The notes under the pieces were generated by a model. It made no database searches. It was not told where the DNA came from and saw only the letters and a program-made list of their open reading frames with translations. The position numbers and the translations under genes were made by a program. Positions 2,271 to 55,083 of a stretch of 63,727 nt of DNA are shown one piece after another. Within the stretch, counting starts at the first letter, position 1, and each line of letters starts with the position of its first letter. The DNA is from a virus (Duplodnaviria; Caudoviricetes). The stretch covers positions 1-63,727 of the IMG/VR virus record IMGVR_UViG_3300033153_006754; one strand, 5' to 3'.

Positions 2271-2866
2271 GGACCAGCTCCCTTGTTGAAGTTCGGCTTT
2301 GGTTCACGAAGAGCGAAGGCACTGTAACGTTGCTCCTCAGTGCCCTCGCTGAACACGGTCTTCAGCCTTAGCTTGCCTGTGGAACCACCTCGTATAGAGT
2401 TTGAGTTGCTTACTACAACCACCTCCCACTCTCGTGGATCAGGGATCCTCTGGATGTCACTCAGTTCGAGCCTGACCTGTACAATGATGCGCCTTAACAG
2501 CTTCTGATGCAACAGTGTCTTCAGTCCCGGGTTGGCCTCCAGGTATTCCAGGTCAGTAGCTATTCCGGCTGAGTTCACAATATCGGACCAGCTGCTGATC
2601 TTGGTGTCAAGAAGCTTGCCAATGCGTACGTTAACAATGTCAATGGTACCGTTCCTGTGCAGTCCCCACCCCATCGAATCCTCACCAGGGAAGCTGCCAA
2701 GCTTCTGGCCTGGTAGTATGTTCCAGTTCCTGACACCATGTTCAACTGGATCAAACACTGGGCCACGGAAGATCGGTACCACGATCTCCTCTCCATGCAT
2801 CCCATGCTGGGCCTTCTTCTCAGGCCCAAGGTGAGATACCTGAGCTTGTTTCAGCATACCTTCCAT
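2249..2866 (-). CDS. Hypothetical baseplate-region protein
   Basis: 205 aa ORF overlapping hub stop codon (TAATG). Confidence 0.55.
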   Translation of the reverse strand: MEGMLKQAQVSHLGPEKKAQHGMHGEEIVVPIFRGPVFDPVEHGVRNWNILPGQKLGSFPGEDSMGWGLHRNGTIDIVNVRIGKLLDTKISSWSDIVNSAGIATDLEYLEANPGLKTLLHQKLLRRIIVQVRLELSDIQRIPDPREWEVVVVSNSNSIRGGSTGKLRLKTVFSEGTEEQRYSAFALREPKPNFNKGAGPWSTNSR

Positions 2867-36175: not shown

Positions 36176-38120
36176 CGTCTTCTGGTATCCTAAAACTTGC
36201 AGCTCGAGAACGATCCCAGGTAGGTCGACTCAAACCAGAGCTTTGACCGGCCCTGTTGAGGTGGCCAATGCGATTGCGCATACCACGGCCGCCGGAGGCC
36301 TGGCGATCGGCCACGTGCATGAACTCTGCGAATGACATTGCATTGCGATTGTGGGTGGAAGTCTGGAACGTACGCGGCAGAGGAGTGAGTCTCTTCTGTT
36401 TGTCCCTGAACTCACGATCTTTGTTCTGAGCTATCAGGTCAGTCTGGCCATCGCCGAAGTATCCTGTGAATGCAATCCTGGTGGACACATTAACCTTGGC
36501 TATGTCAGACAGCTCCATTACCACTGCATAGATGCTCAGCATCCAGGCAATCAGTGTATGCTCCTTCTCGTCAGTGAAGATTGGCTGACCATCGCGGCCA
36601 TACCTGACTACTGAGTAGTCACGCATCTGGCCGACCAGTCCGGTAGAAGTGTCCTCACCACGAGGAAGAATAACCTCATGACTCTCAACCCGGCGGACGC
36701 AGACGTCAACCATGAAGGGCTTGATGGCCTTCTTGACAAAGCCTTTGGTTAGCGGATCCCTGATCAGCTCCTTGCCGCCGAAGTTGACCGCCTTCACCTT
36801 TCTGTGGAGACGTGTCTTCGGATGCTGCATGCCCCACAGCTTGAGCGCTTCAACCTGTGTATCACCGTCACCCTGATCTACGTATATGAACTCCGGGTTC
36901 CATACCTCGTTGAGCTTGGCAATACGCTGGATGGCAGTGTGCTGAGTAAACTCCCCAGCATCTACGACCTCCTTGTACGCCGTGCGGAACTTCTGGGTGG
37001 TGAAGTCGTACCCAGTCAGGATTACGTGTACACCAATACCACGTCGATTCCAGTCAACACCCATGGTGTACATCTCGTTGGAGAATGGTACTGCACCCTT
37101 GAGCGAGTAGTCTTGCAGACACGCCTCAATATGCTTGTGCTGGAACAGACCCACTTCCATTTCGCCGAACTCAGCCATGAACTCATGAGCAAATCCGTTT
37201 GAGGAGTAGGTCTCCCTGTAGAACAGCTCGAGCTCCGGAGTCCAGTACGGTGACACAAACGAGGTGTAATGGAACTCACGGAAGTCGATGCGCTTGTTGG
37301 TGCAGTACTTCCAGTACATTGCGCGGCGCCCTGTAGGCGTCGAGCTGACAACCATCTGTGCGATCGGACCGGAGCCAGTCAAGGACGCCAGAACAGACTC
37401 AAGGGTCTCATCGTCGAGCATGTCAGCTTCATCAATGATCAGCAGGGATGGGGTCTGGCCGCGGTACTTGTCGCCCTTCTGACCGGTCCGGACACCAGCA
37501 GTCATGCCCAGCACAGATGAGTTCCCGTCCGGGTGATAGAACTCAATCTCATGCGGGTTCATCTTGTCCCTGATCTTGAACTCTGTGTCTGACATTGTGT
37601 GGCTGCGCTGGATGTACTTCCGGAGCCTGTGGAAGACCAGGTCTACCTGATCCTGGTATGGGCACAGAATGACAACCCTGAAGTCAGGGTGGGTGGCAAG
37701 GTAGTAGAGGGCAAGAATAGACAGGATTTCAGTCTTGCCGATCTGCCGGCCCATCCGGAAGACCTTCTTCCTTGCTGTGCAGCGCAGTGGCTCGATCTGG
37801 TACCAACGAGGGTCCCAGTCCAGCTCTACCTTTGCCCAGGCGATTGGGTCGTTGAACATCCACCACTGGTTGGTCTCATCCTGATCCAGCTGATCCATGT
37901 GTTCGTTGTTGCGGATCTGGATGTCAGTCGTGAGGAAGCATTTCGGAGAGAACTCCTGGCGGACAACCTCGTCGTAGTAAGTCAGGCATCGATCACAAAC
38001 GACGTCATGCTGATCACCACAAGAGGAATTATTGACCTTCGCACGTAGCTCCTTGTACCTGAGTATGCGCAAGGGACGCAGTTCAGCGGCTAGTTTCTCG
38101 GCTATGGCGCCTTGGTCCAT
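36168..38120 (-). CDS. terL: Terminase large subunit
   Basis: 650 aa; WYQ, Walker A GRQIGKT, Walker B LIIDEAD, SSTPTG, nuclease MGVDW; no intein seen. Confidence 0.93.
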   Translation of the reverse strand: MDQGAIAEKLAAELRPLRILRYKELRAKVNNSSCGDQHDVVCDRCLTYYDEVVRQEFSPKCFLTTDIQIRNNEHMDQLDQDETNQWWMFNDPIAWAKVELDWDPRWYQIEPLRCTARKKVFRMGRQIGKTEILSILALYYLATHPDFRVVILCPYQDQVDLVFHRLRKYIQRSHTMSDTEFKIRDKMNPHEIEFYHPDGNSSVLGMTAGVRTGQKGDKYRGQTPSLLIIDEADMLDDETLESVLASLTGSGPIAQMVVSSTPTGRRAMYWKYCTNKRIDFREFHYTSFVSPYWTPELELFYRETYSSNGFAHEFMAEFGEMEVGLFQHKHIEACLQDYSLKGAVPFSNEMYTMGVDWNRRGIGVHVILTGYDFTTQKFRTAYKEVVDAGEFTQHTAIQRIAKLNEVWNPEFIYVDQGDGDTQVEALKLWGMQHPKTRLHRKVKAVNFGGKELIRDPLTKGFVKKAIKPFMVDVCVRRVESHEVILPRGEDTSTGLVGQMRDYSVVRYGRDGQPIFTDEKEHTLIAWMLSIYAVVMELSDIAKVNVSTRIAFTGYFGDGQTDLIAQNKDREFRDKQKRLTPLPRTFQTSTHNRNAMSFAEFMHVADRQASGGRGMRNRIGHLNRAGQSSGLSRPTWDRSRAASFRIPEDGD

Positions 38121-39568: not shown

Positions 39569-42500
39569 CTATGCTGCCCTTGCTGCCATACGGGAACGGT
39601 TGCGATCTAGCTTGGGAACACTGTTCATGCCAGAGTAGCGTTCGATAACACTTCTAACGCGACTACCACGTCGTTGGTTCCACAGTACATTATTAACTAA
39701 CCCAAAGGTCGGTGTAAACATAGATATTGGCCGGCCGGCCTTCGGACTCGAGGTGATCTTCCGCTTGCTCTCTGTTATCTGCAGAGTTTTTGAATCAATA
39801 TCCTGACCCTGTATTGGGTTGTAGGCACCACCGAATGGAGTCATGTCCGGGCGTGCAGGATCCATACCATGGAACCTGTTGAACTGGTTCACAGGACCAC
39901 GCATACCCTGGATGCCACCCATCTGGTAGAGCATGGCAGGATCCATACTCATGCTAGGATCAGGATTGCGGCGCTTGCGTGCACCTAGTACTGCAGCTGT
40001 TGGATACCTTACTGCTGTAGCAGCAACTTCACCAAGAACAAAAGATCCAACAAGGTTGATGACCGCCGAACCAACGAATCCAAGTATTGCCCCACCAATC
40101 GTACCAGCAGGGCCAAGAGCAGAACCTGCAGCAGCAAGCTTGGCACCAGCTGCCAGCCAGAGACCAGGTCTGATCAAAGCGAAGGCGGCCATTCGAGCAG
40201 TACCAGCAGCAGTCTCAGTAATGAAACCCTTTGTGGCATTCTCGTATTGATCCATCAGGGAGTAACCTTCGATAGCACCCCAGGCAACGTTCATGTATGG
40301 AATCTTGCCAAGAGCTCTGCCAACGCCACTCTTGCCAAACTTGCTGATACTGGAACCAACCTTGGTAAGCCGCCTCATCTTGTCTACATGTGCGGTGAAC
40401 AATGGACTGTTCTTGTTGATGTCCTTTAAGCGCTTGCCTATGTTGGTGAAGACATTCTTGACTTCCTTCTTTGCCAGGAGTGACTTCTTGTCTATGACCC
40501 TGTAGGCAAGAGCCATTTCCTCCAGGCGGCCGAAGTTGGTGATGATATCTTTTACACCGGTCACCTTGGCCATGAAGCCCTGCGGGTTGGTGACAAGATT
40601 CTTGACATTCTCACTCAGAGCATGTGTGAACTGATCCCAGGCCAGGATCTTTTTGGCACCAACGAGTTTGTTTAGCTTACCCATCTTCTTCAGGCGTTGG
40701 ATCTCGTTGGCGTCAACTCCGTATGTCCAATGCTTGGACTTTGTGGCAATGCTCTTGAACCAATCCTTGACGTTGCCACTGGCATCCTTAGTTAGTTTGC
40801 TCTGCTTACTTTCGATGTAGTCCCACAGCTTCCCAGGTGCTTCTTTGATGGACTCCCAGGAGAACTTCTTGAGTATCTTGTCGAACCACCCGAGCTTGGT
40901 ATCTGCAACACTGGCTATGTTGGTGATGAACGAGGTGCTCATCTTGCGACGTCTCATCCATGCGTGTCTGGACATCTGGTCATACTTCATTGCCTTGAGA
41001 CCAGCTTTTACCTTTTTGCCAGCAACCTTACTTTCCCTCAACTGGTTCGGCGTCAACGTTTCAGCTGGGTCCAGGAGATGACCTGCCTTAACGAATGAGT
41101 CCCAGGCCTCGAGCATTGGATGCTTGTTAGGAGCCAAATAGCGCTCGAGGCCCATTACAACACCCTGCAGACCAAGGTGCTTCAGAGCCTCCCGCTTGTG
41201 GGCAGAGGCTGCCTCTTCAGCTGCCACACCCATGTTCTGGTGCTGGGCCCAGGCTCCAACCTTGTGGCTGGCTACGAAGTCTCCATGCGGCCGCATTCCC
41301 ATGAACTCCCGCGGGTGCCGCGGTGTGTCCATCATCCGCTCGCCGATGCCTTGCTCATCACCCTTGAGCATAGCCCAGGTGCCAATTGCGACTCCGGTAA
41401 GAACCAGAGCTCCAATGCCAGCAGCAGGACCAATACCGTGGTACCTGGATGAGGATGACTTCATGCCTGAGCTGGGTGGCACTGGAACATTGCGCGCCGG
41501 GATGGACCGGTCAACCACCTTGATAGCTTTGGGTGGTTTCGCTGTTGTGGTTGGTGTTGGCTTGCGTGTTGGTGACTGTGGTGGTTTGGCATGTTGTGCC
41601 TGGGCAGCATCATCCACTTGCTCAAGGTAAGCGTCCACATCATTGACATAGAAGCCATGGCCACCGTCTTTGTAGGTCTGGAATATGACGTCCCTGGCCT
41701 TGGCATCAGGGTATGCAGCAAGGGTACGTTTCGGGGTGTCAATGACCCTGTATTTACCAGTGGTGCTACTGTGTACGTACAGCTCACCAGTGCCTGTGTA
41801 TATGGGACCTACACCCTTACCCATGTTTACGGGAGTGGTGCGATGCAGGTCTGGTCTGGTACCCGATTCACCAGGATAATGGTTCACTGCTTGTGTAAGG
41901 TCAGGTCTGGTACCTGCACCCAACGGATCGGCACTGACCGGAGCACTCGGTAGCATCGGGGATGTGACTGCAATTGGAACAGACGTAGCGTTCAGATTGT
42001 TGACCGTGGTGTTCCATATGGTACGTGAATCAATTGGAGAAGATCCGTACCTCTCATTCACTGCTGACTGTACAGCAGTGATCTTGGCTCGGCCGGACGA
42101 GAAGTCAGAGACGTTGCCACCACGAACCTGAGTTGGCGTGATGCCAGATCCAACGATACTCCATGGAGTTACTGGACCACGGATGCCAGGCAGGAAGCCG
42201 GCGTTCTTGGTGCGCTTGTTTAGCCGGCCCATGGTCTCGGCCCTGTATGCCGAGCCGACCTGATACATGTCCTGGACTTCATCTGGAGTCCATGGTGAAC
42301 GGCTGCTGTCATGAGCGCGCTGGACCAGGCCATACCAATCGGACAACGCTGCACTACGCGTAATCCTGTCCAGGGAGGTCATGGTGGTGTTGGTGACCCT
42401 CTTGCCTGCAATGAGCCCCATGGCCCGGTGCATCTGCCAGCCCTTGGACTGCCACATGCCAATCTTGCCAGAGGCGGCTAGGGCTTCAGCACTAGCGTAG

Positions 42501-43750
42501 GCGTTGTGGTCAACGATCTGCCTCTTCCGACTCTGCCAGGGCAGAGCGGCAGCAGCACCACCACGAACCAGTTGGAGGTTAAGATTGGCGCGCCGATCGC
42601 CGATGAGCACGCCTACATGCCTGTTATAACTTCGTGAGCTAGGATCAAATACAAGCCGGAGGCTCTGCTGACGCTCGATCAGGTGCTCGAAGTACTCAGC
42701 ACCCTGCTTGCCAGCAAATTGATCCTCAGCTATACGCCCGGACATGCCCGGGTGCTCAACTTCAGGAGCATCGATGCCAGCCAGCCTGATGCTGACCGGC
42801 TTCTTGAACATGTTCATCAAGCCGCGGCGCTTGACAGTGATGGAGTCAGCATCGCTGACCTTAACGTGGTAGTTCTTCAGGTCGACCACGCCCATCCAGG
42901 CACTGCGGTTCAGCCCGGCTGTCTTGAGCCAGGAGCCCCTGGCCATGTCGTACTCACCGCGATGGAACAGCCGCCTGTTGGCGGACATCATCGCGCTGGT
43001 CCAGGTCTCGTGGCTCTTCTCAAGACTCTTGTAGCTTACACCGTCAATATCCGGGTATCGGATGTCGAGTGAGGACCTGTAGGCTGATAGTTCGTTGAAT
43101 CCTCTGGTGACAGGGTTCCCGAACCTGCGTCCGGACCCAAAGTCAGTCAGAGCTCGAGCTACACCACGGCCGCAGGGCCCGAAGCTGATGCCGTCAACCT
43201 CAAGGTAAGGCGAGTCACTGGGATCTCTAACACCCTTGAGCCTGGCCTGCTTCTCTGGTAGAGCAGCATCAGCTATGGTCATCCCGGCCAGAACCATGGC
43301 TGCAGCACGCAACTTCGGATGCCTGTTAAACCAGGGCTTATACTGGGTCCTCCAGGCGTCAGATATCTCGGCGCCGGCACGACTGTATATCTTCCTGAGT
43401 GTCTCTGGCTGACTGGCTAATGCGCGAGCTGTCGTCTTGGCACCAACGCGCTGGGCACTTATCTTGCTGGATAATGTTTTATCCAGAGATCTAAGTCTGT
43501 GGGATTCAGACCTGGTGACTTCGGTTGCCTTTTGGACTGGGTTTTTGATTGCAGGAGTTGGCTGTGTAGCAGCACGCAGATCCTGACGCATCTTCCTGAA
43601 GTACGTCTTCATTGCAGAAGTTAGACGCGCAGGGGAAGGTTCGGTACTTTGACTCTGGCGTGCCTTCTTTAAGTACTCCCTCACTGCCTTGACAACGCCT
43701 GGGCTGGGCTTTTGATAATCAGCCAACTGCCACTTCCTGCTCTTTAGCAC
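39569..43750 (-). CDS. Large basic virion/ejection-like protein with thermonuclease (SNase) domain
   Basis: 1393 aa; VSDADSI..IRLAGIDAPE..SYNRHVG..NLQLVRGGAA..KIGMW; C-terminal Gly zipper. Confidence 0.75.
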   Translation of the reverse strand: MLKSRKWQLADYQKPSPGVVKAVREYLKKARQSQSTEPSPARLTSAMKTYFRKMRQDLRAATQPTPAIKNPVQKATEVTRSESHRLRSLDKTLSSKISAQRVGAKTTARALASQPETLRKIYSRAGAEISDAWRTQYKPWFNRHPKLRAAAMVLAGMTIADAALPEKQARLKGVRDPSDSPYLEVDGISFGPCGRGVARALTDFGSGRRFGNPVTRGFNELSAYRSSLDIRYPDIDGVSYKSLEKSHETWTSAMMSANRRLFHRGEYDMARGSWLKTAGLNRSAWMGVVDLKNYHVKVSDADSITVKRRGLMNMFKKPVSIRLAGIDAPEVEHPGMSGRIAEDQFAGKQGAEYFEHLIERQQSLRLVFDPSSRSYNRHVGVLIGDRRANLNLQLVRGGAAAALPWQSRKRQIVDHNAYASAEALAASGKIGMWQSKGWQMHRAMGLIAGKRVTNTTMTSLDRITRSAALSDWYGLVQRAHDSSRSPWTPDEVQDMYQVGSAYRAETMGRLNKRTKNAGFLPGIRGPVTPWSIVGSGITPTQVRGGNVSDFSSGRAKITAVQSAVNERYGSSPIDSRTIWNTTVNNLNATSVPIAVTSPMLPSAPVSADPLGAGTRPDLTQAVNHYPGESGTRPDLHRTTPVNMGKGVGPIYTGTGELYVHSSTTGKYRVIDTPKRTLAAYPDAKARDVIFQTYKDGGHGFYVNDVDAYLEQVDDAAQAQHAKPPQSPTRKPTPTTTAKPPKAIKVVDRSIPARNVPVPPSSGMKSSSSRYHGIGPAAGIGALVLTGVAIGTWAMLKGDEQGIGERMMDTPRHPREFMGMRPHGDFVASHKVGAWAQHQNMGVAAEEAASAHKREALKHLGLQGVVMGLERYLAPNKHPMLEAWDSFVKAGHLLDPAETLTPNQLRESKVAGKKVKAGLKAMKYDQMSRHAWMRRRKMSTSFITNIASVADTKLGWFDKILKKFSWESIKEAPGKLWDYIESKQSKLTKDASGNVKDWFKSIATKSKHWTYGVDANEIQRLKKMGKLNKLVGAKKILAWDQFTHALSENVKNLVTNPQGFMAKVTGVKDIITNFGRLEEMALAYRVIDKKSLLAKKEVKNVFTNIGKRLKDINKNSPLFTAHVDKMRRLTKVGSSISKFGKSGVGRALGKIPYMNVAWGAIEGYSLMDQYENATKGFITETAAGTARMAAFALIRPGLWLAAGAKLAAAGSALGPAGTIGGAILGFVGSAVINLVGSFVLGEVAATAVRYPTAAVLGARKRRNPDPSMSMDPAMLYQMGGIQGMRGPVNQFNRFHGMDPARPDMTPFGGAYNPIQGQDIDSKTLQITESKRKITSSPKAGRPISMFTPTFGLVNNVLWNQRRGSRVRSVIERYSGMNSVPKLDRNRSRMAARAA

Positions 43751-45720: not shown

Positions 45721-45748
45721 ATGGTACACGGGCTGTGTGAGATGTCAA
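45721..45748 (-). promoter_or_regulatory. Sigma70-like promoter
   Basis: TTGACA-N16-TACCAT. Confidence 0.6.
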
Positions 45749-45820
45749 GCCCCCGGCCGGCATCGAACCAGCGACCTACGGTTTACAAAACCGTCGCTCT
45801 CCCAACTGAGCTACGGAGGC
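45748..45820 (-). tRNA. tRNA-Thr(TGT)
   Basis: Cloverleaf, loop TT-TGT-AA, no CCA. Confidence 0.9.
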
Positions 45821-45823
45821 ATA

Positions 45824-45897
45824 TGGTGGGGCTGGAAGGAATTGAACCCTCGACATTGAGGTTCGTAGCCTCACGTCCCGAGTCCACGGGCAACCCC
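45824..45897 (-). tRNA. tRNA-Arg(ACG), atypical D-arm
   Basis: Loop CT-ACG-AA, CCA. Confidence 0.8.
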
Positions 45898-45901
45898 GAT
45901 C

Positions 45902-45977
45902 TGGTACGCCCGGAGGGATTCGAACCCCCAACAACCGGTTTAGAAAGCCGGTACCCATCCAATTGGGACTCGAGCGC
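45902..45977 (-). tRNA. tRNA-Arg(TCT)
   Basis: Loop TT-TCT-AA, CCA. Confidence 0.88.
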
Positions 45978-46053
45978 TGGTATCCCCGGAAGGACTCGAA
46001 CCTTCATTCCAGGATTAGGAATCCTGTGTCCTGTCCGTTTGGACGACGGAGAC
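45978..46053 (-). tRNA. tRNA-Arg(CCT)
   Basis: Loop TT-CCT-AA, CCA. Confidence 0.9.
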
Positions 46054-46129
46054 TGGCACTGCGAGAAGGACTCGAACCTTCAACCGCCAGGTTCGGAACC
46101 TGGTGCTCTATCCGTTGAGCTACCGCAGT
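46054..46129 (-). tRNA. tRNA-Arg(CCG)
   Basis: Loop TT-CCG-AA, CCA. Confidence 0.9.
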
Positions 46130-46200
46130 TGGCAGGCCGTCGAGGTGTCGATCCCCGCTGGCGGGGGTTGGAGTCCCACCTGATCGCCGGATCACAGCCT
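46130..46200 (-). tRNA. tRNA-Trp(CCA), truncated D-arm
   Basis: AGG..CCT-G-CCA acceptor, loop CT-CCA-AC, T-loop ATCGACA. Confidence 0.75.
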
Positions 46201-46203
46201 ACA

Positions 46204-46275
46204 TAGATCTCCGAGGAGTCGAACCCACAACCTACTGGCTCAAAACCAGCCGTGCTACCATTACACCAGAGATCC
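46204..46275 (-). tRNA. tRNA-Gln(TTG), weak T-stem
   Basis: Loop TT-TTG-AG; T-stem GTGGG/CCTCG mismatched; no CCA. Confidence 0.65.
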
Positions 46276-46351
46276 TGGTAGGGGTGGAAGGGTTCGAACC
46301 TTCGACCTCTTGAGTCAGAGTCAAGCGTTCTACCAGTTGAACTACACCCCT
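46276..46351 (-). tRNA. tRNA-Gln(CTG)
   Basis: Loop CT-CTG-AC, CCA. Confidence 0.9.
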
Positions 46352-46355
46352 ATTT

Positions 46356-46425
46356 GCCGGCGTTCTGCCAGTTAAACTATGCCAAGGTTTCCCTCGGCAG
46401 TCGGGTTCGAACCGACACTTCCGGC
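46356..46425 (-). ncRNA. Circularly permuted tRNA mimic (YrlA-like T/acceptor/D module)
   Basis: GCCGG-AAGT-GTCGG TTCGAAC CCGAC-TGCCGAGG GAAA CCTTGGCA-TA-GTTT AACTGGCA GAAC-G-CCGGC. Confidence 0.8.
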
Positions 46426-46427
46426 GC

Positions 46428-46506
46428 TGGTCGGGCCAGGAGGATTCGAACCTCCGGTCTCCTGCTCCCGAAGCAGGCGGCAACGGCCAAGCTTGCCCAT
46501 GGCCCG
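46428..46506 (-). tRNA. tRNA-Pro(CGG)
   Basis: Loop TT-CGG-GA, CCA. Confidence 0.9.
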
Positions 46507-46584
46507 TGGTCGGGCGAGGAGGATTCGAACCTCCGATTTCCGGTCCCCCAGACCGGCGTCCACTCCAAACTGGACCGCCGCCCG
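46507..46584 (-). tRNA. tRNA-Pro(GGG)
   Basis: Loop CT-GGG-GG, CCA. Confidence 0.9.
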
Positions 46585-46588
46585 ATAA

Positions 46589-46667
46589 TGGTCGGGGTGA
46601 CTGGATTCGAACCAGCGAATCTCCTGCTCCCAAAGCAGGCGCCCTGGCCAGGCTGGGCTACACCCCG
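46589..46667 (-). tRNA. tRNA-Pro(TGG)
   Basis: Loop TT-TGG-GA, CCA. Confidence 0.9.
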
Positions 46668-46669
46668 TT

Positions 46670-46745
46670 TGGCTCCCCAGGTGGGGTTCGAACCCACAAC
46701 CTCCCGGTTAACGGCCGGGCGCTCTTCCACATGAGCTTCCGAGGA
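46670..46745 (-). tRNA. tRNA-Asn(GTT), C33
   Basis: Loop CC-GTT-AA, CCA. Confidence 0.88.
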
Positions 46746-46749
46746 TCAC

Positions 46750-46823
46750 TGGAGCCACCGGGTGGAATCGAACCACCATTTCATCCTTACCAAGGACGTG
46801 TTCTGCCGTTTAACTACGGCGGC
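46750..46823 (-). tRNA. tRNA-Thr(GGT)
   Basis: Loop TT-GGT-AA, CCA. Confidence 0.9.
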
Positions 46824-46826
46824 TTA

Positions 46827-46890
46827 TGGAGCGGGGACTGAAGCCGGTGCCAGCCCCAGAGATTAAGTCCCAGGATCGAGGGAGCCCCGC
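46827..46890 (-). ncRNA. tRNA-like element with Gly-type acceptor and CCA but no normal D/T arms
   Basis: GCGGGG...CCCCGC-T-CCA, 64 nt, central CT-TAA-TC loop. Confidence 0.55.
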
Positions 46891-46964
46891 TGGAGCCATC
46901 GGCCAGAATCGAACTGGCGTCTGCTGAGTACGAAACAGCTATTCTGCCCCTGAACTACGATGAC
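46891..46964 (-). tRNA. tRNA-Thr(CGT)
   Basis: Loop TT-CGT-AC, CCA. Confidence 0.88.
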
Positions 46965-46974
46965 AGTAGGAAGG

Positions 46975-47061
46975 TGGCGGAAGACGTAGGAGTCGAACCT
47001 AATGCCTCTCGACACGATCCGGTTAGCAACCGGTCCCCAGTCCACACCGAGTTCATCTTCC
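46975..47061 (-). tRNA. tRNA-Ser(GCT)
   Basis: Loop TT-GCT-AA, long variable arm, G-CCA. Confidence 0.85.
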
Positions 47062-47138
47062 TGGAGACCCCGGTCGGACTCGAACCGACTAAGGTAGGGT
47101 TTGCAATCCTACGCCTCGTCCACTTCGGCATCAGGGCC
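47062..47138 (-). tRNA. tRNA-Cys(GCA)
   Basis: Loop TT-GCA-AA, U73, CCA. Confidence 0.88.
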
Positions 47139-47228
47139 TGGCGGTGGGCGGAGGAGTCGAACCCCTGTCATATTTCAGACCGCACGGCTTTCGAGGCCGC
47201 CCCCAGTCCAACACCGGGGTCACCCACC
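47139..47228 (-). tRNA. tRNA-Ser(CGA)
   Basis: Loop CT-CGA-AA, long variable arm, G-CCA. Confidence 0.85.
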
Positions 47229-47236
47229 ATAACAAA

Positions 47237-47323
47237 CGGCAGGGCTGGGATTCGAACCCAGGAGACCTCTCAGTCTACACGCTTTCCAAGCGAGCGCTTT
47301 CAGCCGGACTCAGCCACCCTGCC
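47237..47323 (-). tRNA. tRNA-Ser(GGA)
   Basis: Loop TT-GGA-AA, long variable arm, no CCA. Confidence 0.88.
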
Positions 47324-47530
47324 AGTAGGGTAATAGGTAGGAGAGGCCTCGTCTGGCCTCCCTTCTCCGAGTGCCTTATGATCGGCAACACGAAGAGGGG
47401 AAACTTCGCGCATTGGGCCAGCGCCGGGTCGTTCGACCCAGCTGCTGTCTCCTTCGTTGGAGTGTTGTGCGAAGCATCGAGAACCTCTTATTGCGTACCG
47501 GCGCTAAAGGCCGGCGATGAATATATTCTC

Positions 47531-47558
47531 AGTGTACAGATGCCGAGAACGAAGTCAA
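47531..47558 (-). promoter_or_regulatory. Sigma70-like promoter
   Basis: TTGACT-N16-TACACT. Confidence 0.7.
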
Positions 47559-47566
47559 GTACTTTC

Positions 47567-47643
47567 TGAGGTGAACGGAGGGATTCGAACCCTCTCCTCG
47601 AGAGTCACAATCTCGTATGCTGACCACTTACACCACATTCAAC
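47567..47643 (-). tRNA. tRNA-His(GTG)
   Basis: Loop TT-GTG-AC, G-1:C73, ends TCA. Confidence 0.88.
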
Positions 47644-47718
47644 TGGTGACCCAGGCAGGAGTCGAACCTGCGTTAAGGAGTTATAAGCTCCCCGTTCTAG
47701 CCGTTGAACTACTGGGCC
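47644..47718 (-). tRNA. tRNA-Ile(TAT)
   Basis: Loop CT-TAT-AA, A73, CCA. Confidence 0.88.
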
Positions 47719-47761
47719 GCAACGTTCAGCTGCGGCTTGATATTCGTTCGTGTTCCATCTA

Positions 47762-47833
47762 TAGCGGGGAGGGGAATCGAACCCCCGAGACCAAGGTTAT
47801 GAGCCCCGGCTAAGCACCAACGCTTGCCCCGCG
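47762..47833 (-). tRNA. Initiator-type tRNA-Met(CAT), atypical
   Basis: CGCGGGG start with C1:U72 mismatch, loop CT-CAT-AA, compact D-arm. Confidence 0.8.
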
Positions 47834-47840
47834 TCACTGA

Positions 47841-47913
47841 TGTCCTCGCTGGGATTCGAACCCAGACTCGACTGTATTTAAGACAGCTGGCTTTGCCGTT
47901 AGCCTACGAGGAC
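47841..47913 (-). tRNA. tRNA with TAA (Leu) anticodon and short variable loop
   Basis: Loop CT-TAA-AT, 5-nt variable region, A73. Confidence 0.82.
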
Positions 47914-47926
47914 AGCTGATTCCTGC

Positions 47927-48010
47927 TGGTACCGGAGACAGGATTCGAACCTGCAAGCCTTTCGGCGGTGCGTTCTGAGCGCACTGCGTTTACCATTTCA
48001 CCACTCCGGC
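47927..48010 (-). tRNA. tRNA-Leu(CAG)
   Basis: Loop CT-CAG-AA, long variable arm, CCA. Confidence 0.9.
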
Positions 48011-48095
48011 TGGTGCCCAGGGTGGGAGTCGAACCCACAAGCCGCAAGGCACATGGCTCTCAACCATGCGTGTTTACCTGTTTCACCACCTGGAC
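48011..48095 (-). tRNA. tRNA-Leu(GAG)
   Basis: Loop TT-GAG-AG, long variable arm, CCA. Confidence 0.9.
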
Positions 48096-48099
48096 ATTC

Positions 48100-48184
48100 T
48101 GGTACGGAAGGTGAGATTCGAACTCACACGCCTTGCGGCACAGAGGTTTGAGCTCTGCGCGTCTACCTGTTCCGCCACTCCCGC
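48100..48184 (-). tRNA. tRNA-Leu(CAA)
   Basis: Loop CT-CAA-AC, long variable arm, CCA. Confidence 0.9.
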
Positions 48185-48187
48185 TAC

Positions 48188-48259
48188 TACGGCCACGGAG
48201 AGTTGAACTCCGGTCTCCGGGGTGAAAACCCGGTATCCTTGCCACTGGACGACAGCCGC
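48188..48259 (-). tRNA. tRNA-Glu(TTC)
   Basis: Loop TT-TTC-AC, no CCA. Confidence 0.85.
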
Positions 48260-48262
48260 TCA

Positions 48263-48334
48263 TACCCCTACAGAGAGTCGAACTCTGGTCTGCTGGATGA
48301 GAACCAGCTATCCTTGCCACTAGACGATAGGGGC
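48263..48334 (-). tRNA. tRNA-Glu(CTC)
   Basis: Loop TT-CTC-AT, no CCA. Confidence 0.88.
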
Positions 48335-48412
48335 TGGTAGGCCCGGTCGGACTCGAACCGACATGACCCCTGCGTGTAAAACAGGTGCTTGGCCAAGTTA
48401 AGCTACGGACCT
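48335..48412 (-). tRNA. tRNA-Val(TAC)
   Basis: Loop TT-TAC-AC, CCA. Confidence 0.9.
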
Positions 48413-48477
48413 ATGCGGAAGCGTCACCGGACTACGCACGTGTGGAAGCACGGAACGTAGCACCCGGCTCAGCTTCC

Positions 48478-48553
48478 TGGCGGGACTCACGGGGATCGAA
48501 CCCGCAACCTCCGGATCGACAGTCCGGCGCTCTTCCAATTGAGCTTCAGTCCC
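48478..48553 (-). tRNA. tRNA-Asp(GTC)
   Basis: Loop CT-GTC-GA, G-CCA. Confidence 0.9.
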
Positions 48554-48558
48554 GTTTC

Positions 48559-48634
48559 TGGTGGATAACGGTGGGACTCGAACCCACAACTCCTGGGTGC
48601 AAACCAAGTGTGTTCCCAATTACACCACGCTCCC
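48559..48634 (-). tRNA. tRNA-Ala(TGC) with bulged acceptor
   Basis: Loop TT-TGC-AC, G3:U70, extra A in 3' acceptor strand, CCA. Confidence 0.8.
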
Positions 48635-48711
48635 TGGTGGACCCTGTCAGAGTCGAACTGACCGCCTCCTGCGTGCAAAACAGGCGCTCTACCCAGATGA
48701 GCTAAGGGCCC
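48635..48711 (-). tRNA. tRNA-Ala(TGC)
   Basis: Loop TT-TGC-AC, G3:U70, CCA. Confidence 0.9.
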
Positions 48712-48722
48712 ATATGTAGTAT

Positions 48723-48797
48723 TGGTAGCCCCGGAGGGAGTTGAACCCTTCGTTTGCGGTTTATCAGACCGCTGTTCTGCCGTTGAACTACGGAGCT
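48723..48797 (-). tRNA. tRNA-Ile(GAT)
   Basis: Loop CT-GAT-AA, CCA. Confidence 0.9.
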
Positions 48798-49021
48798 TCT
48801 TAGTTGAGGTCTCGAGGAAGTTTGGAGAAGACTTGCGGGAGACCTCAGCGTCGGTTACGCCGCGATCTCCATAATATCCAGAACGGCGGCGCCCACGACG
48901 ATGTCGTGTTCTAGGTGAAGTCGTATGTGTAACTTCTGCCGCTGCACTTCTGGTCTCCAGTTATAGGGGACGCCGGCACGGGGTCTTTACAGCCCGTACC
49001 GACGTCAGGTTCGATCCGTAT

Positions 49022-49309
49022 TTAGTGTACGGATGCCAGCACAAAAGTCAAGTTCAATCTGCCAACTTTTACTGTCTCGCCGTCAATCACCTTCCGGAAC
49101 AGCCGTGGCTTGTTCTTCTTCACTTGGCTGGTGCTGGGGAAGAGGCCCAGCTCAACTAGAGCTCGAGCTAAGAATGACTCGTCTGTTCGCACAATCATAT
49201 CTGCCTTCGGTAAGGTGTTGTTGTTAAGGATCCCCTTCACGAGCATGATCGCTTCGCGTACGGGGAGCTCCCATGATGCAACTACTGCTGGCTGTAAGAT
49301 CTCAATCAT
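49022..49309 (-). CDS. Small protein with S4-like RNA-binding motif
   Basis: 95 aa; LARALVELGLFPSTSQVKK..TVKVGR resembles the TyrRS C-terminal S4 domain. Confidence 0.55.
   Translation of the reverse strand: MIEILQPAVVASWELPVREAIMLVKGILNNNTLPKADMIVRTDESFLARALVELGLFPSTSQVKKNKPRLFRKVIDGETVKVGRLNLTFVLASVH
49024..49051 (-). promoter_or_regulatory. Sigma70-like promoter
   Basis: TTGACT-N16-TACACT. Confidence 0.7.
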
Positions 49310-49386
49310 TGGTGTGGGTACAGGGATTCGAACCCTGACTGCCAGCTTGGAAGACTGGCGTGCTGGCCGTTGAACACTACACCCAC
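49310..49386 (-). tRNA. tRNA-Gly(TCC) with U2:A71 and A73
   Basis: Loop CT-TCC-AA; GTGGGTG/TACCCAC-A-CCA. Confidence 0.85.
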
Positions 49387-49410
49387 AAATTCAAGGGACT
49401 GCATTAGATC

Positions 49411-49620
49411 TCATTCAACCACTTCCAGTATAGCCTCGAGCCCTGATCCTTCTGGGCTGAGCTTGACTAAAGGCCTGGACCTTATGACCTCAGCAATCTC
49501 ATCAGTGATATCGGGACCACCGATCTCACAAGTACCGTCCGGTCCTGTCTTGGCCGTGATGAAACCGTCCTTGAGCTTGATGAAGAACGTTGCCATTGGA
49601 GTGCCTATGGAAACTTTCAT
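49411..49620 (-). CDS. Hypothetical 69-aa protein inside tRNA array
   Basis: ORF filling the gap between tRNA blocks. Confidence 0.5.
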   Translation of the reverse strand: MKVSIGTPMATFFIKLKDGFITAKTGPDGTCEIGGPDITDEIAEVIRSRPLVKLSPEGSGLEAILEVVE

Positions 49621-49669
49621 TAGAGGCCCTCAAAAAGGTTATTGATCTATTGGACATTATATCAACTAA

Positions 49670-49743
49670 TGCCCCCGGTAGGATTCGAACCTACATCTAT
49701 CCGGTTAAAAGCCGGATGTTCTACTCCATTGAACTACAGAGGC
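49670..49743 (-). tRNA. tRNA-Lys(TTT)
   Basis: Loop CT-TTT-AA, no CCA. Confidence 0.9.
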
Positions 49744-49745
49744 TC

Positions 49746-49820
49746 TGGTGGGCCGAAAGAGATTTGAACTCTTATCTAACGGATTAAGAATCCGTCGCTC
49801 TACCATTGAGCTATCGACCC
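49746..49820 (-). tRNA. tRNA-Lys(CTT)
   Basis: Loop TT-CTT-AA, CCA. Confidence 0.9.
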
Positions 49821-49824
49821 ATGC

Positions 49825-49898
49825 TGATGCGGGCAGATGGAGTCGAACCACCGTCGACTGTGATCAGCAGTCTGCTCTACCACTGAGCTATACCTCAC
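49825..49898 (-). tRNA. Atypical tRNA with GAT anticodon (possible pseudo-tRNA)
   Basis: Loop CT-GAT-CA (C37), 3-nt variable loop, bulged acceptor, ends TCA. Confidence 0.6.
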
Positions 49899-49982
49899 TG
49901 GTGCGCCGGGTTGGAGTCGAACCAACACAGTACTAGACGGGTGGGTTACAGCCACTTGAGCTCACCAATGCTCAGCCGACAC
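49899..49982 (-). tRNA. tRNA-Tyr(GTA)
   Basis: Loop CT-GTA-AC, long variable arm, CCA. Confidence 0.88.
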
Positions 49983-50056
49983 TGGTGGGCCGAGATGGAA
50001 TCGAACCATCATTACCGCATCTTCAGTGCGGCGCTCTACCACTGAGCTACCGACCC
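49983..50056 (-). tRNA. tRNA-Phe(GAA)
   Basis: Loop CT-GAA-GA, CCA. Confidence 0.9.
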
Positions 50057-50059
50057 AGA

Positions 50060-50130
50060 AGCGACTGGAGAGAATCGAACTCTCGTGTCCAGCTTGGGAA
50101 GCTGACGCTTTACCACTAAGCTACAATCGC
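50060..50130 (-). tRNA. tRNA-Gly(CCC)
   Basis: Loop TT-CCC-AA, canonical GCG..CGC-U, no CCA. Confidence 0.9.
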
Positions 50131-50136
50131 GTTAGT

Positions 50137-50210
50137 TGGTGTGGCTGGCGAGAATCGAACTCGCATTGCCTGCGTGGCGGGCAGGTATCTTACCGTTGGA
50201 TCACAACCAC
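50137..50210 (-). tRNA. tRNA-Gly(GCC) with U2:A71, A73 and C33
   Basis: Loop CC-GCC-AC; GTGGTTG/CAGCCAC-A-CCA. Confidence 0.83.
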
Positions 50211-50348: not shown

Positions 50349-50930
50349 TTAGGATAAAAGACTCAACTCCATGGAGCAGTGCTCATCGGGACCCAGCTTA
50401 TCAAGATCTTCAACGCACTGAACCTTGAACCACTCGTGGACGTATGCGATCTTCCAACAGCCATTGGCAGCAATGAGGTTGAACACAGTATCACCGAAGT
50501 CATTGGCTGAGCGAGTGTGTATGTAGAGGCGGGACGTCATCCTGCTAAGGTCAGTGAGTATGGAGTCCAGGTCATGATGCTCGAGGTGTTGCAGCACCAG
50601 AGATACCAGAACTGAGTCAAAGGTCATAGTCCGGACCGCTTCCCAGTTGCTCTCCAGCACAACGTTCGAAGGTATTGAACCCAGCCCCTCTTCCACCAGA
50701 CTCAGCATGCCTTCAAAGTCGTACCCAACGACCTCATCTGCTCTAGCCGCAAGCTCCTTCAGGTTCCGGCCTACTCCACACCCGAAGTCCAGCACACGAT
50801 TGCCGAAGGACGCACGTTGCATCAATCCAATGTCCGCCGGCAATGGTCCTTCTCTAGATCCCCATCCTGATAGAACGCGCTCCCTAGCTGACTTCAAGTC
50901 TCCAGGATCACGCCACTTGTCATATCTCAT
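50349..50930 (-). CDS. Class I SAM-dependent methyltransferase
   Basis: 193 aa; RVLDFGCGVGR, FDSV..VLQHL. Confidence 0.88.
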   Translation of the reverse strand: MRYDKWRDPGDLKSARERVLSGWGSREGPLPADIGLMQRASFGNRVLDFGCGVGRNLKELAARADEVVGYDFEGMLSLVEEGLGSIPSNVVLESNWEAVRTMTFDSVLVSLVLQHLEHHDLDSILTDLSRMTSRLYIHTRSANDFGDTVFNLIAANGCWKIAYVHEWFKVQCVEDLDKLGPDEHCSMELSLLS

Positions 50931-51244: not shown

Positions 51245-52189
51245 TCATGGTCGCACTGCAAAGACGTCTATCTGGAACGGGCGGTTATCAGGCAGATCAC
51301 CAATGGCCTGCATCTCATTGTCACCAGTGATAGCTAAGGGTTTGTATCCAAGATCCCTGAGCATGTTCATGTACTGGTTGGGACTGCAGTTTGACACCTT
51401 ACGCAGCTGGTCTCGGTGGACCTCGGTAATGATGGGCGGGTACTTGTGGCGCTTGAGGAACTGTCGGCCACCTTCAATGACCAATGGCTCAGCGCCCTCA
51501 ACATCCATCTTGATGAAGCTGACTCCTTGACCCTGATCCTCAATCTGAAGAGCGTCGAGCGGATACACCTGAACGGTAGCGGCCGTGTGGTTCGGAGGTG
51601 GCTCTGTACCCAACTCCGCCAGATAGGCACCACCATGGTTGATGGTGTCCGGGGCGTAGATGAGGTTGAGCTTTGATTCCGAAGCACCGACCGCCTCGTT
51701 CAGGCAACAGACGTCACCCATGTCTGGATGGTCCCTACGCAGGTTCTCCCTGACCGTACGATCCAGGAGTGAGTAGACGTGAGGCATTGGCTCGTAGGAG
51801 AGCACAGTGCCTTTTGATCCAACCATCCTGGCCATCTTGATCGAGAAGTAACCAACGTTGGCTCCGATATCCAGTACGTGAGTTCCGGGCTGTATCCACT
51901 TCTTCATCAGGTTGAGGACGTGAGGCTCATACTTGCCCTGGAGGATCCCGCGACCAATGAACTGGTCGTTGAGGTCGATCCAGAACCGGTCCCCATCGGT
52001 ATCCTCAACCATGACGATACTGTTCCCAGCTTCCTTGCTCTTCTCCTTGAACTCAGTGGACGCCATCAGGGAGTCCCTCAGGGTCTTCATGTCGCCGCAT
52101 CCCATCTTCTCTTCCATCACGGCAGAGTTTTCGGGCATGCGTTCAAAGAGGACCTTGTAGGCCCAGATGACGTCTTGCTGAGTGAGCAT
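51245..52189 (-). CDS. FkbM-family methyltransferase
   Basis: 314 aa; LDIGANVGY, YEP, IKMDVEGAE; short N-terminal AYK.LF.R.PE helical domain. Confidence 0.9.
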   Translation of the reverse strand: MLTQQDVIWAYKVLFERMPENSAVMEEKMGCGDMKTLRDSLMASTEFKEKSKEAGNSIVMVEDTDGDRFWIDLNDQFIGRGILQGKYEPHVLNLMKKWIQPGTHVLDIGANVGYFSIKMARMVGSKGTVLSYEPMPHVYSLLDRTVRENLRRDHPDMGDVCCLNEAVGASESKLNLIYAPDTINHGGAYLAELGTEPPPNHTAATVQVYPLDALQIEDQGQGVSFIKMDVEGAEPLVIEGGRQFLKRHKYPPIITEVHRDQLRKVSNCSPNQYMNMLRDLGYKPLAITGDNEMQAIGDLPDNRPFQIDVFAVRP

Positions 52190-52923
52190 TATGATTCCAC
52201 CACTCGGACCATATGATGGTCTTCTTCAAGAGGCTCACCGGTGAGGGCCTCAATGACCTCCTTGGAGAAGGTGTACTCACCTTTCTTCAGGTTATACGTT
52301 TGGCCCTTATTGTGTTGGTACACTTTGTGGTAACCCCTGCCCTTGATCCACCCGACCACGTCTTCAGCATGGTAGGTGTAGTTGTCCTCAGTGGTGATGT
52401 CGTCGATTGAAACTCCGCCACCTCTCTGGATAATATCCACGTTCCGGATGACGAGCCAGGCGTCGACGCCGTACTCATCGATTGACTGGAGGACGATCCC
52501 GCCGAGCTTGATGGGGAGGTGGGGCCACATGCTCTCCTCATTGACGATGGAGAGGATGGTGCCGACATACCCACCAATGTTCCAGTCAGTGTTGCCCCAG
52601 GAGATGCCTTGGACGAAAGGAGCTGGGTTGATGATCCTGGGTTGGTCCCCGCGCTCTGGACTGACCAGGAGGGCCTCAGTGTCGACGCCACAGAAGGACC
52701 ATCTGGTGTGCTTGCCAGGAGGCTTCTCGAACTCCTGGTCCTCCTTGAGGTCCTTCCCCCAGTCGAAGGGCTTCTTGGTAACGATCTTGCTGCGCTCTGA
52801 CCTGAGCTTGTACAGAACTCTGGATGCGTCCTTGATGCGACGATTGACATCGTCCATCTTGGCCTTATTGTCTGGGTCGGCCGCTTCGGGGCCTCGGTCC
52901 GGGCTTGAAGGGTTCTCCGTCAT
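52189..52923 (-). CDS. Orphan tail-tube homolog lacking the long beta-hairpin
   Basis: Start at MTENPSS (RBS AGGAGG), 244 aa; 26/50 identity to the tube C-terminal segment. Confidence 0.78.
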   Translation of the reverse strand: MTENPSSPDRGPEAADPDNKAKMDDVNRRIKDASRVLYKLRSERSKIVTKKPFDWGKDLKEDQEFEKPPGKHTRWSFCGVDTEALLVSPERGDQPRIINPAPFVQGISWGNTDWNIGGYVGTILSIVNEESMWPHLPIKLGGIVLQSIDEYGVDAWLVIRNVDIIQRGGGVSIDDITTEDNYTYHAEDVVGWIKGRGYHKVYQHNKGQTYNLKKGEYTFSKEVIEALTGEPLEEDHHMVRVVES

Positions 52924-53089
52924 TGTACTTCCTCCTGAGTCGTTTGATCTCCTTCTCCAGTCCAGCGGACATAAGAGAAGTGAGCGTGACACTTTGGTCG
53001 TGCTCGTGATATTGCAGGAACGCTACTGCGGCCCTGGCCTCCGCTAGGAGAGCATCATCGACGTTATGTGTGGTTCGAACTTTTGACAT
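52865..53089 (-). CDS. Ribbon-helix-helix / ParB C-terminal-like DNA-binding protein
   Basis: 74 aa; TTHNVDDALLAEARAA..LEKEIKRLRRKYNDGEPF..GRP. Confidence 0.6.
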   Translation of the reverse strand: MSKVRTTHNVDDALLAEARAAVAFLQYHEHDQSVTLTSLMSAGLEKEIKRLRRKYNDGEPFKPGPRPRSGRPRQ

Positions 53090-54771: not shown

Positions 54772-55083
54772 TCAAGCCTTGTTGGTTCCTTCCACGCCAC
54801 GGTCCTGGCGACCCTTGGTACGGTCTTCCAGCCAGTGGATGGCTTCCTGGAACTTGGTGATGGCCAGTGCATTCTCCCTGCACTTGAACGGGCCCTTCTG
54901 GAAACCCTCGAGCCGGTCGATGAGCACCTGTGCCACCAACTCGATAGTGGTCCCGTTCTCGTCATGCTCCTTGATGGGCCCGCACTGGAACTTGATCTTG
55001 ATGTACTCCTCTTCGATGAAAGACATGGTGCCATCAAGAGACTCCTGTGCCTCCAGGTCCAATTTCTCCAGGTTCTCGCTCAT
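54772..55083 (-). CDS. tad1: Tad1/Acb2-family immune-signal sponge (anti-Thoeris/anti-CBASS)
   Basis: 103 aa; IKFQCGP..NG..IDRLEGFQKGPFKCRENALAITKFQEAIHWL..R..RGVEGT; RBS GGAG. Confidence 0.88.
   Translation of the reverse strand: MSENLEKLDLEAQESLDGTMSFIEEEYIKIKFQCGPIKEHDENGTTIELVAQVLIDRLEGFQKGPFKCRENALAITKFQEAIHWLEDRTKGRQDRGVEGTNKA

Follow-up and report, generated by a model that had tools for sequence, protein, structure and literature searches.

The stretch of DNA analyzed here, hereafter the window, is a whole IMG/VR virus record (IMGVR_UViG_3300033153_006754; 63,727 nt, or 63.7 kb, with an estimated completeness of 31%) from a large myovirus, in which the minus strand carries nearly all of the long open reading frames (ORFs). 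At positions 52189–52923 on the minus strand lies a gene for a protein of 244 amino acids (aa), P0001. This accessory protein is intact, looks expressed and is a paralog of the tail-tube protein of the same phage, P0002 (235 aa; 21293–22000, minus strand); it lacks the hairpin loop of its parent family. We recognized P0001 as a hairpin-less tube paralog from its translation, its BLASTP alignment to the tube, its AlphaFold2 model and its fold matches. Reading the sequence upstream of the gene revealed a Shine-Dalgarno motif, AGGAGG (52931–52936, minus strand), with a 7-nt spacer to the ATG at 52923. An alternative longer frame with a GTG start covers 52189–52992; the ATG is the better start, because the homolog P0003 aligns to P0001 from residue 1. 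An earlier reading of this DNA, made without database searches (the sequence-only reading), had described the gene as an orphan, and it does lie 30 kb from the module that holds the sheath and tube genes.

P0001 and P0002 are homologous, with 29 identities over 66 positions aligned by BLASTP without gaps (E 1e-15, for a single comparison), and a hidden Markov model (HMM) of canonical tubes, A6, scores P0001 at 55.5 bits (E 1e-16). The core motifs of the family, SF.GVD, QGIS, EYG and G.SIDDI, are all kept in P0001: SFCGVD at residues 76–81 and VQGISW at 104–109, both of which the sequence-only reading had picked out, face SFSGVD (19–24) and LQGVSY (37–42) of P0002. The same reading had reported 26 identities within a 50-residue block (IVLQS...VVGW facing IVLTA...IIPW), and we obtained the same number by hand count on the BLASTP alignment. 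It had further proposed that 26 residues of the tube are replaced by 9 in the paralog, which can be read directly from the two translations: T43–G68 of P0002 is matched in P0001 by GNTDWNIGG, residues 110–118 (52570–52596, minus strand), in the place where the tube has its hairpin loop. A second loss, which that reading does not mention, follows from the offset of the BLASTP alignment, in that residues 78–143 of P0002, a variable segment of 66 residues, have no counterpart in P0001. At the N terminus, 75 residues precede the SF.GVD motif in P0001, compared to 18 in P0002, which bears out the claim of an N-terminal extension. AlphaFold2 predicts two helices there (residues 17–48 and 55–65, at a predicted local distance difference test (pLDDT) score of about 60–78), and hydrophobic residues recur along the extension at roughly 3–4 spacing; the helical part as a whole, residues 17–65, was delimited from the predicted secondary structure and alignment A3 and corresponds to 52729–52875 (minus strand). 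Profile scans of P0001 with NCBIfam and PADLOC (2023 library) gave no match and Pfam gave a chance-level one (E 0.14), while in PHROGs P0001 matched the tube family phrog_9206 only (E 8e-6). A sequence search of the PDB returned nothing for either P0001 or P0002 at E ≤ 1.

We take P0002 to be the tail tube, partly on indirect evidence: its adjacency to the sheath gene, its synteny with Bacillus phage vB_BceM_WH1 and the label of one GenBank record. P0002 lies directly downstream of the gene for the tail sheath, which anchors the tail module (22026–23408, minus strand; phrog_16991 at E 2e-54, and Pfam Phage_sheath_1C). On its other side stands a second tube paralog of 258 aa (paralog 2; 20459–21235, minus strand), which retains the hairpin and is absent from the sequence-only reading. 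The genes for the sheath, P0002 and the paralog follow each other in the same order in WH1; we found no paper on this phage in the literature to back the 'virion structural protein' labels in its record. A tblastn search with P0002 returned 8 records, all of them jumbo phages of the 0305phi8-36 group (34–45% identity), and GenBank labels the homologs 'tail tube protein' in one record and 'major structural protein' or 'major head protein' in the others. The label 'major head protein' is also attached to the tube family of the 0305phi8-36 group by PHROG 9206 and by several GenBank and RefSeq records. It is probably a propagated misannotation, because the window has a separate HK97-type capsid gene (27453–28844, minus strand), P0002 adjoins the sheath gene and the orphan paralog has a tube fold. 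In many related loci, the gene after paralog 2 scores weakly, at 18–32 bits, with the canonical-tube HMM (for example, L145 11030–11788 and L162 11026–11802), and these profile scores suggest a putative third tube-fold gene in the tail modules of relatives. The ORF at 19689–20459 of the window has no score with the same HMM at E ≤ 10.

The segment that P0001 lacks is the most conserved part of the tube. In an alignment of 42 canonical tubes (P0002, 30 from IMG/VR loci and 11 from a protein search), R46–G71 holds 10 of the 22 invariant residues. The AlphaFold2 model of P0002 (pLDDT 68) has a 27-residue low-confidence loop with a short helix between strands 32–41 and 69–77. In contractile tubes, the loop between strands 2 and 3 is described as 25–28 residues long, a length nearly constant across systems (PMC6088184). 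According to the same source, the monomers of diffocin, XkdM and Hcp1 have a flexible helix at this place; once pyocin and T4 tubes have assembled, the loop protrudes as a beta-hairpin, which passes under the neighboring subunit of its own disk and links this neighbor to two subunits in the following disk (PMC6088184). Position, length, conservation and the models of both P0001 and P0002 agree, and we therefore identify the missing segment as the tube hairpin loop, in support of what the sequence-only reading had supposed. We place the loop at residues 42–68 of P0002 (21797–21877, minus strand), guided by the invariant columns, the low-confidence loop of the model and the published structures (PMC6088184).

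Modeling of P0001 agrees with this picture. The AlphaFold2 model (102 aligned sequences) has a mean pLDDT of 80, rising above 90 in the core, and contains a beta-sandwich that spans residues 82–201. Strands 104–111 and 119–126 of this sandwich are connected by a 7-residue turn only, so the model retains no hairpin. We delimit the tube-fold core as residues 72–196 (52336–52710, minus strand; pLDDT mostly above 90), on the basis of the model and of the range 71–196 that aligns to solved tail tubes. The best match by VIA-align was the phiCD508 tail tube (Z 10.5, root-mean-square deviation 2.8 Å over 112 residues), and all 50 of the rows listed were tail-tube, Hcp or contractile-injection-system entries. 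Foldseek against the PDB returned Hcp (top match 7fcf_D), PVC/AFP, T4, lambda and other tube entries; against BFVD it returned the tube family again, including proteins of the 0305phi8-36 group and of phage G. ESM Atlas gave tube-family leads only, below 0.9. P0001 is thus, by both its fold and its sequence homology, a member of the tail-tube (Hcp/gp19-like) fold superfamily.

P0001 shares the beta-sandwich with P0002 and with the tubes of contractile tails and tailocins (T4 gp19, pyocin FIIR2, diffocin CD1364, phiCD508 and phi812; Z up to 10.5). Unlike these tubes, it has neither the inter-disk hairpin loop nor the 78–143 segment, bears a helical N-terminal arm, is encoded 30 kb from the tail module and is not conserved in relatives. 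The loop of 25–28 residues between strands 2 and 3, a feature of polymerizing tube proteins, is not present in P0001, and the same holds for two further features of a building block, adjacency to the sheath gene and conservation in relatives. Without the hairpin, P0001 cannot donate the contact that connects successive disks and, hence, is not a normal building block of the tube. It may still offer hairpin-accepting or lateral tube-like surfaces, a one-sided valency that would be compatible with capping, nucleating, sequestering or masking. We think it probable that P0001 mimics the tube or binds to it, and does not build it. A complex prediction of P0002 with P0001 (own alignments, without controls) gave ipSAE values of 0.11 and 0.08, where the mark is 0.32, and speaks neither for nor against binding.

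P0001 has relatives that share its short loop. When 5.8 billion proteins were searched through a word index, a single homolog emerged, P0003 (203 aa, 42% identity, with a 6-residue loop), and a profile search of 1.84 billion representatives found 101 proteins at E ≤ 1e-3, 22 of them shorter than 150 aa. Sorting by motif order separates three types. Type A are the canonical tubes. Type B proteins have a short loop after QG.S and carry a Y.[LM]G..DP motif on an N-terminal arm, 25–80 residues ahead of that strand. Type C proteins have the short loop without the arm motif and include P0001, P0003, P0005, P0007 and P0014. The subfamily HMM A3 scores P0001 at 176 bits, compared to 55.5 bits for the canonical-tube HMM A6, and the core motifs are conserved over the 29 relatives in alignment A3.

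To locate the hairpin in these proteins, we built an HMM from the 42 tubes over the range of P0002 residues 42–70 and searched it on the 101 proteins with a cut-off of independent E value (i-E) < 0.01. Thirty proteins matched. Twenty of them have the whole hairpin in its canonical place, and two matches start inside the hairpin and probably represent truncated ORFs. The remaining eight match only the tip-proximal part of the hairpin, and they do so on the N-terminal arm (P0089, at 5e-10, P0048, P0039, P0021, P0071, P0042, P0004 and P0090). As a control, none of 1010 shuffled sequences reached i-E 0.01. P0001 had no match to this HMM. Its residues 35–48 line up with the type B arm motif (MAFFT, A3), are degenerate there and are modeled as helix; P0001 has lost the arm motif and is, hence, type C.

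A quick maximum-likelihood tree of 58 rows chosen from the 101 hits and the loci (12 type A, 22 type B, 14 type C and 10 paralog 2) places types B and C on one side and type A and paralog 2 on the other, with a weak Shimodaira-Hasegawa-like approximate likelihood ratio test (SH-aLRT) value of 79. Within it, P0001 and P0003 form a pair (97), which groups in turn with the type B protein P0004 (84). The type C proteins are dispersed among type B, which needs 7 changes and suggests that the arm motif was lost repeatedly. The subfamily of P0001 was met only on phage or metagenome contigs in this analysis. A search for longer, fused forms (532–2000 aa) found none, which counts as weak evidence.

The distribution of these genes among related phages is patchy. 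None of five related records (three of them at least 90% complete) has a tube-like match outside the tail module. The metagenome contig L055, which runs collinear with about 16 kb of the window, carries an ortholog of P0001, P0005 (37% identity over 149 aa); a locus search based on P0005 found none in IMG/VR and one metagenome locus, L055 itself. The IMG/VR contig 3300031707_000018, from the closest relative, encodes a tube (L006) 72% identical to P0002 and has two orphan copies in its accessory region, 26–30 kb from the tube gene, in locus L136, which we found by scanning IMG/VR with alignment A8. The copy at L136 3481–4281 encodes a type B protein of 266 aa that has YRLGSADP at residue 65, and the copy at 7262–7879 encodes a type C protein of 205 aa; the latter gene lies beside homologs of the 82-aa and 74-aa ORFs of the window. 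The short loop is also found in P0003 and in the positional orthologs of two related phages. Between relatives, the orphan proteins are 25–37% identical, compared to 72% for the tube and 45–59% for most neighboring genes (range 33–59%). P0001 is an accessory gene that evolves faster than its neighbors and varies in copy number.

Further members turned up in other settings. In locus L189, a type B gene lies upstream of ORFs that, judged only from their order and from inspection of the sequences, resemble a gene for a GroES-like protein and a head module. Locus L209 (IMG/VR 3300037424_001021) is the one case in which we found a family member, a distant one, inside a tail module: its 137-aa hairpin-less ORF (13148–13561) comes behind the genes for the tube and paralogs 2 and 3 and an ORF of 141 aa. 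In the cultured Bacillus phage WH1, gp036 (LC597490.1 18691–19074; L186 2692–3075) is a 127-aa hypothetical protein encoded among RuvC, ClpP and RecB genes. Its loop is short and it matches the tube core weakly (E 1.5e-5 in a search of one genome), and by this similarity it may be an orphan mini-tube gene of a cultured phage.

Broader searches returned mainly canonical genes. A search with an 11-row alignment gave 34 loci, each with the tail-module tube and paralog 2 only, and IMG/VR scans with the type B and type C alignments A9 and A10 gave 154 new loci, many on overlapping contigs, with two distinct type B/C ORFs. Across the genomes of 185,579 species, alignment A4 found no relative and A9 found three loci, all canonical tail-module triples with no type B/C gene. 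Among 50,697 phage records searched by tblastn, none matched P0001, P0019 or P0089.

In the direction of transcription, the window runs from small genes through a tRNA array to the large terminase (36168–38120, minus strand), the portal (32278–34323, minus strand), the capsid protein with an Ig-domain protein, the sheath, P0002, paralog 2 and three ORFs of 1482–2123 aa. P0001 lies among the small genes. Some 2 kb upstream of it, the ORF at 54772–55113 (minus strand; 113 aa) is, from its sequence matches, a clear homolog of Tad1 (Thoeris anti-defence 1): it matches PDB 8kbb_A by phmmer at E 5e-20 and PHROG 2428, labeled 'unknown function', at E 6e-28, and has a below-cut-off match to the Pfam Acb2/Tad1 hairpin domain (E 2.5e-5). 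In L055, the Tad1 ortholog (7680–7991; 103 aa) is 59% identical to that of the window and overlaps the stop codon of a methyltransferase gene. The order in L055 is tube-like gene, FkbM methyltransferase, Tad1 homolog, with stops and starts that touch or overlap. P0001 is thus found in a variable locus that holds a known type of counter-defense gene, and the L055 trio looks like one operon.

Directly downstream of P0001 lies a gene for an FkbM-family methyltransferase of 314 aa (51245–52189, minus strand; Pfam PF05050 at E 3e-17, TIGR01444 at E 1e-24). The stop codon of P0001 and the ATG of the methyltransferase share one base (TAATG), so the two genes are translationally coupled. An ortholog of the enzyme, 47% identical, follows P0005 directly in L055 after a gap of 1 nt, and no adjacent block other than this pair of a P0001-type gene and an FkbM gene has been preserved between the window and L055, the rest of the neighborhood being reshuffled. 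The N-terminal ~50 residues of the enzyme fall outside the FkbM domain; by eye, they resemble what we take to be a DUF4214-type repeat. A second S-adenosylmethionine-dependent methyltransferase, of class I (Methyltransf_25/11), is encoded close by at 50349–50930 (minus strand), and it is possible that the two methyltransferases share a role in the same conflict locus. On the other side of P0001, a 74-aa ORF (52865–53089, minus strand) overlaps its start by 59 nt in another frame. It is a possible ribbon-helix-helix protein (Pfam CB_ParB_C at E 2.6e-4, below cut-off) and has a homolog in L136 at 8157–8375, next to the type C gene there; both overlapping frames seem to be conserved. The sequence-only reading mentions neither the Tad1 homolog and the coupled methyltransferase nor the relatives of P0001 and the hairpin tip that some of them carry on the arm.

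Given its Tad1 neighborhood, its patchy distribution and fast divergence and the host systems reported to sense tube proteins, the role that we tentatively favor for P0001, as a possible rather than a probable one, is that of a tube mimic that works in trans in the conflict between phage and host, as a shield or decoy against tube-sensing immunity. P0001 would cover the conserved hairpin or the lateral surfaces of free tube monomers, or it would occupy host sensors of monomeric tube protein (DSR2-type, Avs16-type). With either mechanism, the phage could synthesize its tail without triggering abortive-infection immunity. Two published sensors bear on the choice between these mechanisms: DSR2 is reported to bind monomeric tube protein only (PMC11087589), and the Avs16 sensor to contact the conserved tube hairpin (PMC12803255). 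Because P0001 has no hairpin, the masking of monomers or the occupation of a sensor that recognizes the sandwich would fit it better than a role as hairpin bait; type B members could serve as such bait. A wider proposal, which we regard as conceivable and rather less likely, is that types B and C together form a new class of counter-defense proteins, paralogs of an immune trigger that have been re-engineered not to assemble. In such a class, the arm tip of type B would act as bait for Avs16-like sensors, and the type C core would mask the hairpin of monomers or occupy DSR2-like sensors, in an anti-defense operon beside Tad1.

Two precedents are relevant to a mimic of this kind. P0001 shares with known phage counter-defense systems a neighborhood that includes a Tad1-type sponge gene. 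DSR2 is blocked by the protein DSAD1, which sits on a region overlapping with the site where the tube protein binds (PMC11087589); unlike P0001, DSAD1 is not described as a tube homolog in the text of that article to which we refer. In the article texts covered by our literature search, we found no description of a tube paralog without a hairpin or with the motif on an arm, nor of a tube mimic, decoy or dominant-negative tube paralog; the same texts yielded no counter-defense protein that is a paralog of its own trigger.

Several observations weigh against a conflict role. One distant family member, that of L209, lies inside a tail module, which points to a role in tail assembly. P0001 has no copy of the hairpin epitope that Avs16 contacts, and a decoy for Avs16 would suit type B better. 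P0001 is also on the same strand as the morphogenesis genes, a few kilobases upstream of them, and could be a late or structural gene. A Tad1 homolog is adjacent or near in only two of three related loci, with no homolog of the Tad1-like ORF of the window found in the 14-kb locus L136, and clustering with an anti-defense gene is an association only. Finally, PADLOC, Pfam and NCBIfam give nothing for P0001.

These points bring in the main rival, which we judge to be a serious minority possibility: P0001 may belong to the phage's own tail, as an accessory component or as a factor in its assembly. A ring without hairpins would accept hairpins and donate none, and such a ring could act as an initiator, a cap, an adaptor or a minor virion protein in this sub-lineage only. 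P0001 keeps the tube fold and the core motifs, and type B proteins keep the hairpin-tip motif, whose only known partner is the neighboring disk of the tube. The position of the L209 member in the tail module after paralog 3 favors such a role, as does that of P0001 just upstream of the terminase, portal, capsid and tail genes on the same strand and with a strong Shine-Dalgarno sequence. Tube-fold initiators and terminators are, moreover, presented as established components of long tails in PMC11784142. Tail terminators (lambda gpU, T5 p142 and T4 gp3) and initiators form rings at one end of the tube that do not polymerize and whose fold is related to that of the tube (PMC11784142), and the idea of a one-sided valency is common to them and P0001. 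Terminators, however, are encoded by core genes of the tail or neck module and have a variant of the fold made of a sheet plus two helices (as characterized in PMC11784142), whereas P0001 is accessory, is encoded outside the module and has its best matches among tubes proper. Further evidence points away from such a role: the five related records without a copy outside the module already have the tube and paralog 2, the copy number varies, with two in one relative, and divergence is faster than for structural genes. In three related phages, the gene sits among small genes and counter-defense genes rather than in the tail module.

A third possibility, and an unlikely one in our estimate, is that P0001 is a dominant-negative blocker that poisons the tube polymerization of competing, co-infecting or resident related phages, with an effect like that of Tab or Tai; this takes up the chain-terminating tube mimic or decoy proposed by the sequence-only reading, which had cited Tab. 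The one-sided valency that results from loss of the hairpin would suit a blocker, and a patchy, fast-evolving distribution suits a conflict gene. The argument that loss of the hairpin makes a chain terminator is incomplete, since a subunit that has lost the donor and maybe kept the acceptor surface could equally nucleate, mask free hairpins or cap. The phage's own tube, the one most similar to P0001, would be threatened as well, and no immunity partner is evident. Defense by blocking tail assembly exists, in that Tab and Tai are proteins of mobile elements that stop the tail assembly of other phages (PMC10884400, PMC11364771). The likeness to P0001, drawn here from the published descriptions only, is nonetheless loose: Tab targets the tape measure protein (PMC10884400) and Tai the central tail fiber (PMC11364771), and neither is described in these articles, as far as they bear on the point, as a tube mimic. 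Their carriers are prophages, phage-inducible chromosomal islands and P4-like satellites, in which they are paired with counter-defense genes (PMC10884400, PMC11364771), and not a large, apparently lytic phage such as this one. We saw no integrase or lysogeny gene in Pfam or PHROG scans of 47 ORFs of the window, a record 31% complete, with no search aimed at such genes. The genomes of 185,579 species gave three tube-family loci, all canonical and with no type B/C gene, which also argues against a blocker.

We consider it quite improbable that P0001 acts together with the coupled FkbM methyltransferase, as its partner, adaptor or substrate, for example by bringing the enzyme to the tube protein or to another target. 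The one-base overlap of stop and start in the window, the spacing of 1 nt in L055 and the retention of the pair as the sole adjacent block between the two would be consistent with a joint function. Yet the enzyme has at least 737 homologs of similar length at E ≤ 1e-10, several of them named bacterial FkbM methyltransferases, so that there is no general need for such a partner. None of 80 viral loci with distant FkbM genes holds a tube-like ORF within 6 kb, and neither of the two orphan tube-like genes of L136 has an FkbM neighbor. That P0001 is a duplicated tube gene drifting without function, as its fast divergence and patchy distribution might suggest, is very improbable and disfavored, given an intact frame with a strong ribosome-binding site, a core modeled with confidence, core motifs conserved over 29 relatives, orthologs that persist in three diverged phages and a short-loop architecture that recurs over a deep subfamily.

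Hcp of type VI secretion has the same fold as P0001, forms stand-alone hexameric rings and also acts as a chaperone. Unlike Hcp, P0001 is phage-encoded, has no type VI context and has sequence relatives among phage tubes only. Known roles of the tube fold are those of building blocks (the tube and Hcp) and fixed adaptors, to which P0001 adds a mobile, fast-evolving version that does not stack; in its subfamily, the most conserved element of the tube has either been deleted or been moved to an N-terminal arm. If our preferred reading of P0001 as a tube mimic in phage-host conflict is true, a mimic derived from the trigger itself and encoded beside Tad1 would be a testable candidate for a new way in which phages escape tube sensors. 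If P0001 is instead a tail accessory, it would show that one-sided tube modules are recruited and lost within one phage lineage. Either way, the subfamily provides natural separation-of-function variants for hairpin-driven polymerization of the tube.

Other features of the window lie between P0001 and the morphogenesis genes or beyond them. The tRNA array comprises 35 genes on one strand (45748–50210, minus strand), whose anticodons cover 18 of the 20 amino acids; Trp is not among them, and one CAT tRNA was called as Met. Small ORFs are scattered through the array, one of which, at 49022–49309, is also conserved in L055. Very large ORFs occupy 2866–18544 and 39569–43750 (both minus strand) and encode proteins of 1482, 1619, 2123 and 1393 aa. 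No family matched the 1393-aa protein, whose homolog in L055 has a weak, below-cut-off match to SNase (E 0.002).

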